From: a virus
Lineage: Duplodnaviria > Heunggongvirae > Uroviricota > Caudoviricetes
Direction: 5' to 3' (one strand)
Virus record (IMG/VR): IMGVR_UViG_2939521961_000004
DNA: 64,000 bases
Made by a program: the position numbers. Positions 1 through 3,000 of this stretch are shown one piece after another (the first letter of the stretch is position 1; each line of letters starts with the position of its first letter).

Positions 1-3000
1 TTACCAGTCAATCCAGAGTGGACCGTGTTCAGCGTAAATATAACTGTACACATCCAGATTATATTTGTGGTCTGTTAAGAACAGGCCGCAAATACATGCC
101 GAAGCTTCCAGTGCAGCGGCTCTGTTACTGAATAACCATGTAGCAACATTCCAGCGTTTTTCTGCATCCCAGTCTTTCTCAAGGCCTGATACCATGAAGA
201 AACCGTTAGTGTTGCCATCAAATAATTCTGTTTCCAAATTTTTAAGCAATGCCTGATGGACTCTTGCCAGGTATTCCGCCGGAATTTCGCCACGAATTCT
301 AATGAGATTGTCATAAACAAACATGTTCCCCGCATATGGCGATTTTTCTTTCTTGTTTTTTAAACCAGCATCATGAGCAAACTGATCAATTTCTTCTTCC
401 GTTGGTTTCGTATTGATGTTTTGCGCTGTCGTTTCTGCAATTTTATTTGCCATACTCTCTGAGTCGTGTTTATTTATAGACGCACAGAAATACAATCCGG
501 TAAACGCATCGCGCACATTACGAGCCATATTATCAGTGTCTTTTTTCGTTACCGATTCCAATTCAAGTTCGTTCAGACGATGACGAAGTGTGTGTGCTGC
601 AATCTCCTGGATTGAAGGAGGTAAATCTTTAAATTCCATCGTCAACCTCATCAGTCAGTGTTTCTGGCTAACCAGCGACGCGCGCCAGCTTCAGTTTTAA
701 ACGTTTTGCTTTTGGTATACGTCATCGCGGTGAACGTACCGTCCTGGTTGGGAAACACGCCGCATACCAGAGATTCGTTGTTGCCAAGATTGAGCGTATC
801 CATGTTGACCTCATTCCCCCTTAACGCCGGGTCGCGGAACTAAAAACCTGCTGCGCTGTTATACAAAGTGTTCCCGCCGTCATGTTCATACGCCTCGGGC
901 TGGCTACTTAACCCCTGACCACTGCTTGGTAACTCGAAGTATTGCCCGGCGTTCTGTGGGGCGGGGTGGGTGGTTGGTGTATGTAATCTACAAGTAAAAA
1001 CTGTTTTGTGTCAACAGTTTTTAATTGTTGTTTTGGGCAAAAAAATCCCTCGAAAGAGGGAGTATGAAAATTGTTCAACTCAGATAGAGAAGGGAAATTG
1101 TCGCCGAGAATGTGTCACGCTTACAATCTCAATGCTTGAAGCAGCTACTCTGTACAGGATTATGTAGTTAGGGTGGGTCACGATCTCTCTCAATCCAGAA
1201 ACCCGTTCGCTTGGTGGATATAAGTACGGATGCTCAGATAGAGGTAATACCGATGTTTCAATGCGTATTTTTAGTCTACGTGCTGCCGGTGGGTTCTCCT
1301 TGGCGATGTAAGTTATGATCTGGCGCAAATCATCGCGAGCAGACGGTAGCCATAAAATGGGTAACATTACTCGCTCTTGTTAGTTACAGCAATTTGAGCA
1401 ATAAGATTTTCCATTTCAGCCATTACCTCGTCATGTGGAATTGCGGGGCGAGTGTCTGCAAGGCTTGACGTTACTTTAGTGCGCAACCATTCGTTGTAAC
1501 TGTTTTCTTGTTCGGTAGTTTCGAATTCTGAAACTATCGGAGAAAGGGCTGTACCCATGGCATAACTCCTCTTCTTGTACTGTGGTCACGCCCGGCGGCT
1601 TTTTTGTGCCGCCAGCCACCTAGCAATGGTTTCTTCCATTGATTTTTTCTTGTCTTTGATTTCTTGAAGCATTTTTTCTTGGTCTTCCTCAGGAAACGCA
1701 CTAAAAGCTTGGAGCAGTTCGCGTTGGCGAGGACCAATTTTCATCGTGTCAGGGGTGAAAATTTGCTCACACTCTTCAGGAGGCAATAAAAACCAATGCA
1801 ATGGATGCCCTGAAACCTCAACCAGTTTATCCAAACTTGAGGCTTTAGGTGTAGCCTTACCGCTGACCCATTGTTGAACAGTTTGTTGTGTCACACCAAT
1901 TCTACGGGCAAGCTCAGCCTGGCTCCATCCAGTTTCCTGAAGAAGCTTGCTGATTCTGTACATAGATACTTCTAGGGCGCTCATCATTATTCAATTTTAC
2001 AGGTAAATACTGTTAAAAGCATCACAATAAAAAACTGTTGATTGCATACAGTTTTTTATTGTAGGCTTTGCTTATAGTTTTTAGAGGAGGGCAAAATGCT
2101 AGATAGCACTCGCGAAAAAATTAGGCAGAAATACACTCAGGCTGAAATAGGTCGTTATATGGGGGTCGCTCAACAGACTGTTTGGCAATGGTTTAGCTTT
2201 GGCGTTCCCCCAAAGCAGGTAATTCCGTTATGCCAACTAATGAAGTGGGAAGTTACCCCGCATGAAATCCGCCCAGATATTTATCCTAACCCAACCGACG
2301 GTTTACCTGTTGGATGTAAGGTTAACACATCAAATGCGCCGGAGTTGATTCATGAAAATCAAGCATGAACACATCCGCATGGCGATGAATGCCTGGGCGC
2401 ATCCGGACGGCGAAAAAGTACCGGCTGCGAAAATTACCAAAGCGTATTTCGAGCTGGGAATGACGTTCCCGGAACTGTATGACGACAGCCATCCGGAAGC
2501 CATGGCTCGCAATACTCAGAAAATTTTCCGCTGGGTGGAGAAAGACACTCCTGATGCGGTTAAAAAAATTCAGGCGTTGTTACCAGCGATCGAAAAAGCG
2601 ATGCCGCCTCCGCTGGTGGCCCGAATGCGCAGCCACAGTTCCGCTTATTTTCGGGAGTTGGTAGAGACGAAGGAACGGCTGGTGAAAGATATTGATGATT
2701 TCGTTGCATCAGCGATCGTTCTGTTCGATCAGATGAATCGTGGTGGCCCGGCAGGAAACACTCTGGCTGTGCATTAATTGGGTAATAAATATGAGTAATG
2801 ACAAAAAATTGACACTGAGCGTTTACGAAAACAGTCCGCACATCTGGCGTGGCGGTTTATCTGATGTGGAGCTGGCAGAGTGGTTGATACATAAAGCTAA
2901 TGCGCTGCTCTGGCGTTTGTCAGCCAGAGAACAGCGCAAGGAAACCAGAATAAAGCTGGCTGATGCAGAAGCGTGTGCCGGGCTTATTGAGGATTATACA

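Follow-up and report, generated by a model that had tools for sequence, protein, structure and literature searches.

Why would a lambdoid prophage carry a toxin-antitoxin (TA) pair between its repressor gene and its left operator, and what could the pair do there? The question is raised by IMG/VR virus record IMGVR_UViG_2939521961_000004 (Caudoviricetes), a stretch of 64,000 nucleotides that was analysed whole and is called the window below. It encodes, one after the other on the same strand, a 133 aa cI-like regulator, a 63 aa antitoxin and a 95 aa ParE-like toxin. An earlier note on this DNA had likened the arrangement to the three-component paaR-paaA-parE systems. The kinship goes beyond similarity: O157:H7 carries identical regulator, antitoxin and toxin proteins, and the locus is very probably paaR1-paaA1-parE1 of an Sp4/CP-933M-type lambdoid Escherichia coli prophage (prophage A of the window), lying in its immunity region. 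The note did overstate the novelty of the find, which is published biology. Three-component systems of this kind in enterohaemorrhagic E. coli prophages, with two paralogues, were reportedly described by Hallez et al. in 2010 (Mol Microbiol 76:719), and work from 2021-2023 dissected how they are built into a CI/Cro/CII-like switch.

An intact regulator-antitoxin-toxin locus

All three open reading frames (ORFs) are intact, and the pair follows the repressor gene as the earlier note had described (Table 1). Profile searches place the toxin in the ParE family, with matches to Pfam ParE_toxin PF05016 (2.9e-17, 63.5 bits, cut-off 23) and to the E. coli O157 ParE2 crystal chain PDB 5cw7_B (3e-36, residues 1-93), so that the ParE/RelE fold proposed from the sequence is borne out. 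The toxin is 67% identical to ParE2, and 53 of its alignment columns are invariant among five E. coli variants. The antitoxin is specifically a PaaA-family protein: it matches Pfam PaaA2 PF21217 (5.6e-19, 68.3 bits, cut-off 27) and PDB 3zbe, the PaaA2 structure (1.4e-20), and is 70% identical to PaaA2. The Pfam scan finds no domain in it besides PaaA2, hence no DNA-binding domain, and in NCBIfam it matches a 45-position "RelB family antitoxin" model that likewise has none. Canonical parDE systems (RK2, Vibrio cholerae ParD2-ParE2) share the ParE-fold toxin and a small antitoxin, partly disordered, whose gene lies just upstream. Unlike canonical ParD, the antitoxin of the window lacks a ribbon-helix-helix domain, and DNA binding falls to a separate protein, the prophage repressor.

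That protein has an N-terminal helix-turn-helix (HTH) domain of the XRE/434 type (Pfam HTH_3, 2.3e-12; Phage_CI_repr, 7.4e-05), and its closest solved relatives in the PDB are 434 repressor DNA-binding domains. The Pfam scan finds no Peptidase_S24 match in it. BLASTP aligns it with PaaR2 at 42% identity over the C-terminal 98 aa only (E 1e-20). It also resembles DicA of the Qin cryptic prophage, through a near full-length match to the NCBIfam DicA subfamily (8.4e-14, residues 11-130) and a corresponding place in the lambdoid immunity region (PMC8630535), but it is not a DicA orthologue, since its 51.5 bits stay below the curated cut-off of 101. To our knowledge, Qin has no paaA-parE downstream of dicA. 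The locus thus combines a ParE-family toxin gene, a PaaA-family antitoxin gene directly upstream and a PaaR-homologous HTH gene upstream of both on the same strand, the composition of a paaR-paaA-parE system.

The spacing of the genes points to joint expression. The toxin start and the antitoxin stop share one base in the sequence TAATG at 1367, which suggests translational coupling. Between the regulator and antitoxin genes lies a gap of 27 bp that contains a GAGGAG ribosome-binding site and in which the promoter scan finds no promoter-like site. The terminator scan finds no coding-strand (minus) terminator between the three genes; the only one follows parE, begins 19 nt past its stop codon and separates it from the left operator and leftward early promoter (OL/PL). 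The sequence is compatible with co-transcription from a promoter upstream of the regulator gene. Co-transcription is given as established for the paaR-paaA-parE family in the passage of PMC4803016 that cites Hallez 2010.

Table 1. Features of the TA operon and surrounding immunity region of prophage A, by position in the window. Accessions are those of proteins common to O26 and O157:H7. OR, right operator; PR, rightward early promoter; PRM and PRE, promoters for repressor maintenance and establishment.
Feature	Position	Strand	Remarks	Accession
OL/PL equivalent	985-1028	minus	leftward promoter overlapped by palindrome AAAAACTGT-N9-ACAGTTTTT; PL -35 TTGACA 1014-1009, 18 nt spacer, -10 TAGATT 990-985	
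Terminator of the paaR-paaA-parE transcript	1039-1061	minus	stem-loop TCCCTC-TTCG-GAGGGA, then TTTTTTT; stem 1061-1046 (terminator scan)	
95 aa toxin (parE1-type)	1080-1367	minus	ParE family	WP_001303876.1
63 aa antitoxin (paaA1-type)	1367-1558	minus	PaaA family	WP_000536233.1
133 aa HTH regulator (paaR1-type)	1586-1987	minus	prophage cI/DicA-like immunity repressor	WP_000986592.1
OR region (108 bp)	1988-2095		spacer between regulator gene and ydaS	
Predicted PRM -10 TAAAAT	1999-1994	minus	6 nt before ATG at 1987; placed by eye	
OR palindrome ACAATAAAAAACTGT-N9-ACAGTTTTTTATTGT	2024-2062		15-nt arms, 100% complementary	
Predicted PR	2038-2043 (TTGATT), 2062-2067 (TAGGCT)	plus	toward ydaS; 18 nt spacer; same register as PL	
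ydaS, Cro analogue	2096-2368	plus	Pfam YdaS_toxin 8e-10; phrog_35 transcriptional repressor 9e-29	WP_000887453.1
Predicted YdaT high-affinity operator (OM) TTGATTCATGAAAATCAA	2345-2362	plus	ydaS/ydaT junction; exact TTGATT-N6-AATCAA	
ydaT, CII analogue	2352-2777	plus	Pfam YdaT_toxin 1.2e-09; phrog_163 CII-like transcriptional activator 4.3e-46	WP_000693855.1

The origin of the locus follows from genome comparison. Window positions 900-2800 are 100% identical to many Shiga toxin-producing E. coli (STEC) genomes, including O26:H11 strain 11368, with which the first 7156 nt agree base for base before the sequences diverge. In 11368 the locus sits in a lambdoid prophage adjoining yccA, with integrase, exonuclease and dicB genes to its left and, to its right, replication genes, Q, genes for lysis, heads and tails and an EspF-repeat (tccP2-type) effector gene. 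O157:H7 strain SS17 encodes, at 1.17 Mb, five proteins identical to those of 11368 (same WP accessions); its DNA across 660-2900 is 98.6% identical to the window, and its locus adjoins an "ECs1072 family" gene. Since tccP2 (ECs1126) lies on prophage Sp4/CP-933M (PMC2884950), the ECs1072-family neighbour and the tccP2-type gene at the right end support an Sp4/CP-933M prophage type.

Which of the two paralogues is present can be argued by elimination. O157:H7 genomes have exactly two paaA-parE places, one of them 100% identical to the window. A CP-933P-type locus from an O55:H7 genome (L002) is system 2, because its regulator begins with the published MQKKE and its antitoxin and toxin are the same as the PDB PaaA2 and ParE2 chains. 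This leaves one place for the window locus, as the paralogue on CP-933M, called system 1; the literature mentions a paralogue of system 2 on CP-933M (PMC4803016).

Two side observations concern prophage A and the strain. Compared with 11368, the window lacks an IS1203 copy that interrupts an alpha/beta-hydrolase gene of prophage A (at 7152-7157), and a segment of ~1.3 kb at 43537-44852, between the two prophages of the window, is 96% identical to the IS1203 copy of 11368 in inverted orientation. The source of the window is therefore an O26:H11-like strain that is related to 11368 but distinct; the position of this segment has no bearing on the TA locus. Prophage A of 11368 also has an annotated hokD type I toxin gene (9649-9804 in locus L007, ~1.3 kb lower in the window), and the prophage thus holds at least two toxin-antitoxin-type loci.

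Candidate operators and the immunity switch

The candidate left operator that the earlier note had placed beyond the toxin gene is real as a sequence feature, consisting of a palindrome within 988-1028 and a leftward promoter with 10/12 matches in the promoter scan. It has a counterpart in the OR region. An element of 39-41 nt is common to 988-1028 and 2024-2064, at 77-80% identity in the repeat analysis. Its core, AAACTGT-N9-ACAGTTT, occurs perfectly at OL and OR only in the 64 kb, where 0.21 occurrences are expected, and a third match needs two mismatches. These palindromes are candidate operators of the 133 aa regulator. PR and PRM were placed by eye, from the register with PL and from comparison with the mapped paaR2 start, and are predictions.

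With OL/PL in place, the pair occupies the position that rexAB holds in lambda, co-oriented with a cI-like repressor and lying between the repressor gene and OL/PL, as the note had proposed. As in lambda cI-rexA-rexB, the cargo is downstream of the repressor in a place where it would be expressed in the lysogen. Lambda also has a leaderless repressor mRNA, a property found by experiment for PaaR2 and predicted for the regulator of the window. Unlike lambda cI, the repressor has no S24 autocleavage domain, and the cargo is a ParE/PaaA pair. The Pfam scan of the toxin and antitoxin gives only ParE_toxin and PaaA2 and no RexA/RexB homology, so the likeness to rexAB is positional only.

The predicted PRM has a -10 element immediately before the regulator gene, and no ribosome-binding site was seen upstream of the ATG at 1987 on reading the sequence. 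The paaR2 mRNA is leaderless, with a start mapped by experiment (PMC8630535). In L002 this start reads GATAAT, 6 nt, ATG, with the same -10-to-ATG spacing as the regulator of the window, and the same geometry recurs in the heteroimmune relative L005. The regulator mRNA of this locus is probably leaderless as well.

Across the 108 bp spacer, ydaS and ydaT diverge from the regulator gene, and ydaT is 87.6% identical at the DNA level to the CP-933P-type ydaT. The YdaT operator motif TTGATT-N6-AATCAA was defined by footprinting (PMC9986795); the window has two exact matches, with 0.21 expected. The match at 2345-2362 would mark the site of a PRE-like promoter that reads into the repressor-TA operon from its right side. 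TTGATTCATGAAAATCAA recurs exactly at 51401-51418, at the ydaS/ydaT junction of prophage B, the other prophage of the window. As the YdaT operators of prophages A and B are identical, their CII-like proteins may cross-activate each other's PRE-type promoters.

The suggestion in the earlier note that the repressor doubles as the TA regulator is supported, and for the paralogue paaR2-paaA2-parE2 of CP-933P/Sp12 it has been demonstrated experimentally (Jurenas et al. 2021, PMC8630535). There, PaaR2 is a functional CI analogue, a repressor of PR and PL that at low level also activates PRM. YdaS is Cro-like, and YdaT is CII-like in that it activates a PRE-like promoter located between their genes; beyond parE2 comes a PL-type promoter with its OL operators (PMC8630535). 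The system 2 locus is bistable, and its TA pair, in the rexAB slot, is addictive and stabilises an unstable plasmid, its antitoxin PaaA2 being labile to ClpXP/ClpAP (PMC8630535). The three genes form an operon whose full repression needs PaaR2, although the PaaA2-ParE2 complex alone represses it partially (PMC4803016). For the first paralogue, the part of PMC4803016 that cites Hallez 2010 describes PaaA1/ParE1 as an active cognate pair with no cross-neutralisation with system 2.

The window resembles system 2 in the gene order DUF1391 <- OL/PL <- parE <- paaA <- regulator / ydaS -> ydaT, in the homologous C-terminal domain of the regulator, in the YdaT operator motif and in the -10-to-ATG spacing at the regulator start. 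The divergent ydaS-ydaT genes, the related OR and OL elements and the YdaT site together make up an immunity region of the PaaR2/YdaS/YdaT type. The two systems differ in the N-terminal DNA-binding domain, which is of the XRE/434 type in the window, and in their operators, which are AAAAACTGT-N9-ACAGTTTTT palindromes in the window and GTTTAGTAA-type repeats in CP-933P. Because DNA-binding domains and operators both differ, the window prophage and CP-933P are heteroimmune.

Heteroimmune relatives in E. coli support the operator assignment. Three loci (L004, L005 and L006) keep the order DUF1391 <- OL <- parE <- paaA <- regulator / ydaS -> ydaT -> replication genes, with regulators 98%, 64% and 38% identical to that of the window, respectively. 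The heteroimmune loci form a mosaic in which DNA homology spans parE, paaA and the regulator gene's final 130-170 nt, breaks over the regulator DNA-binding domain and OR as well as the 5' half of ydaS, and returns in the 3' half of ydaS through ydaT. In each of four heteroimmune relatives, OL and OR share their own words of 10-15 nt. Words shared between loci with clearly different regulators are 7-9 nt long, and 11 nt between L005 and the window type. The operators thus co-vary with the regulator's DNA-binding domain, which supports the operator assignment as well as a dual role for the regulator. The idea that the regulator is a TA-specific third component unrelated to immunity was rejected, given the full CI/Cro/CII-type layout with OL and OR and the locus-specific operators of the relatives.

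The same comparison shows that the last ~45 repressor codons (LLQxFSAFPEEDQ...ARWLAAQKxRRA; 1586-1750) are conserved and move with paaA-parE (1080-1558) as one block in L005 and L006. That this repressor tail travels with the TA cassette may reflect linkage or a functional coupling to the TA complex.

Addiction, exclusion and other readings

Gene content, homology, the anatomy of operators, promoters and terminator, and the protein identity with the O157:H7 locus are established by these comparisons. The best-supported mechanism that they and the work on system 2 suggest is addiction, by a module under the control of the lysogenic promoter. The 133 aa repressor would bind OR (2024-2062) and OL (988-1028) and keep both the rightward ydaS-ydaT operon and the leftward early operon off. 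In lysogenic cells a single mRNA, probably leaderless, would cover the repressor gene, paaA and parE, running from the PRM-like promoter to the terminator at 1061-1039, and the YdaT-activated PRE-like promoter near 2345-2362 could drive the same genes. PaaA, without a DNA-binding domain, would neutralise ParE by direct binding. The toxin has the ParE fold and may act as ParE2 does, which on overexpression localises to the nucleoid and induces the SOS response. The antitoxin being labile, loss or replacement of the immunity region would leave the stable toxin unopposed and poison the cell, and the pair would in this way stabilise the prophage together with its immunity region. For repression, co-transcription, leaderless translation, toxicity, cognate neutralisation and addiction, we infer these roles from system 2 and from reviews citing Hallez 2010.

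Several observations weigh against this account or against the naming of the locus. The consensus promoter scan reported neither PRM nor PR in the 108 bp OR region, and the predicted PRM has no recognisable -35 element, which weakens its prediction; a poor -35 is expected for an activator-dependent PRM. The N-terminal DNA-binding domain of the regulator differs from that of PaaR2, and the two do not align. With homology to PaaR2 confined to the C-terminal 98 aa, the proposed operators are predictions and not transfers from footprints. The regulator start (1963-1987) is ambiguous, some records annotating 125 aa from Met9 and most 133 aa; the promoter geometry favours the 133 aa form, as does L005, where the N-terminal extension is conserved with Thr at position 9. 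Single-cell work on system 2 left ParE2 activity undetected in either transcriptional state (PMC8630535). Finally, the label "system 1" is drawn from elimination and protein identity.

Other type II TA systems defend against phages, and the pair might likewise exclude them in the manner of RexAB. A superinfecting phage would disturb the antitoxin supply, the cell would be killed or arrested, and the lysogen population would be protected by this abortive infection. The pair does stand in the rexAB slot, presumably co-transcribed with the repressor (PMC9986795), and prophage B has higB-higA in the equivalent slot, suggesting a collection of cargo. However, toxin and antitoxin match no PADLOC defence model, the regulator's matches there being to generic HTH models alone (RmrA and PDC-M64 among them), and neither has any sequence relation to RexA or RexB. 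Published work supports addiction and stabilisation, with no toxin activation in either transcriptional state, and the searched literature contains no report of defence by paaA-parE. Exclusion is accordingly an unlikely function for the pair.

A far less probable reading makes the pair a two-gene module that is autonomous, with a promoter and autoregulation of its own, and in whose control the repressor would play no part. Two-gene units without a PaaR-like gene do exist outside enterobacteria (Bartonella, Acetobacteraceae, sphingomonads), with ~100 bp or more of non-coding DNA upstream, and the PaaA2-ParE2 complex partly represses its operon unaided (PMC4803016). In the window, by contrast, the space before paaA amounts to the 27 bp gap with its ribosome-binding site and nothing promoter-like, and the only coding-strand terminator comes after parE. 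The genes of system 2 form an operon that needs PaaR2 for full repression, and the 3' end of the repressor gene moves with the TA cassette as a conserved block in heteroimmune relatives.

That the locus is an inactive remnant of a decaying prophage, as the cryptic status accorded to the CP-933M/Sp4-type prophages of O157:H7 and the lack of ParE2 activity in single cells (system 2) might suggest, is least probable of all, given three intact ORFs, a TA pair that 437 complete E. coli genomes carry at 99% identity or above, 53 toxin columns invariant across diverged variants and the activity and specificity of ParE1/PaaA1 reported in the part of PMC4803016 that cites Hallez 2010.

The TA slot in other genomes and in prophage B

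The TA pair is widespread in E. coli. At a coverage of at least 80% it occurs in 778 of 5426 complete genomes, and at an identity of at least 99% in 437. Among species-representative genomes, 36 PaaA relatives (L008-L043) were found, mostly in Bartonella, acetic acid bacteria and sphingomonads, with some in Betaproteobacteria. Outside enterobacteria, paaA-parE is usually a two-gene unit whose upstream non-coding region is typically at least 100 bp, and usually no PaaR-like gene lies directly upstream. These two-gene units fit the published idea of a two-gene cassette inserted into a lambdoid immunity region. They are likewise in keeping with a view of the "third component" as nothing other than the prophage repressor. 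No close copy of the complete locus turned up in the collection of sequenced phages, where DNA-level matches are confined to ydaS/ydaT and to fragments from the OL side. One phage, Escherichia phage Evi, has a gene for a PaaA relative, the identity of 70% being much like that between PaaA2 and the antitoxin of the window.

Prophage B, lambdoid and in tandem with prophage A, has its own immunity region, with a repressor gene at 50632-51030 (minus), a ydaS-like gene at 51151-51411 (plus) and a ydaT-like gene at 51408-51845 (plus). Its OL-side DNA (49657-49865) is 82% identical to window positions 814-1026. The repressor has the same overall design as that of prophage A, with a diverged C-terminal tail, and no paaA-parE lies downstream of its gene. 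The slot instead holds, at 49876-50585 (plus), higB (Pfam HigB_toxin 6.6e-33) and an HTH antitoxin gene, in the opposite orientation to the repressor gene.

TA cargo thus seems to accumulate between repressor gene and OL. It is conceivable, though doubtful, that the slot between the repressor gene and OL/PL is a general docking site for TA pairs, paaA-parE in prophage A and higB-higA in prophage B, whose cargo might provide a RexAB-like exclusion tied to lysogeny and not only addiction. To the published picture, the present analysis adds a predicted map of operators, promoters and terminator for system 1, the less studied of the two. Further additions are a cassette and repressor C-terminal tail common to several heteroimmune prophages, with a mosaic boundary inside the repressor gene, and a different TA pair, higBA, in the equivalent slot of the adjacent prophage. 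These additions are useful mainly as a basis for asking whether repressor-linked TA cargo defends lysogens against other phages.

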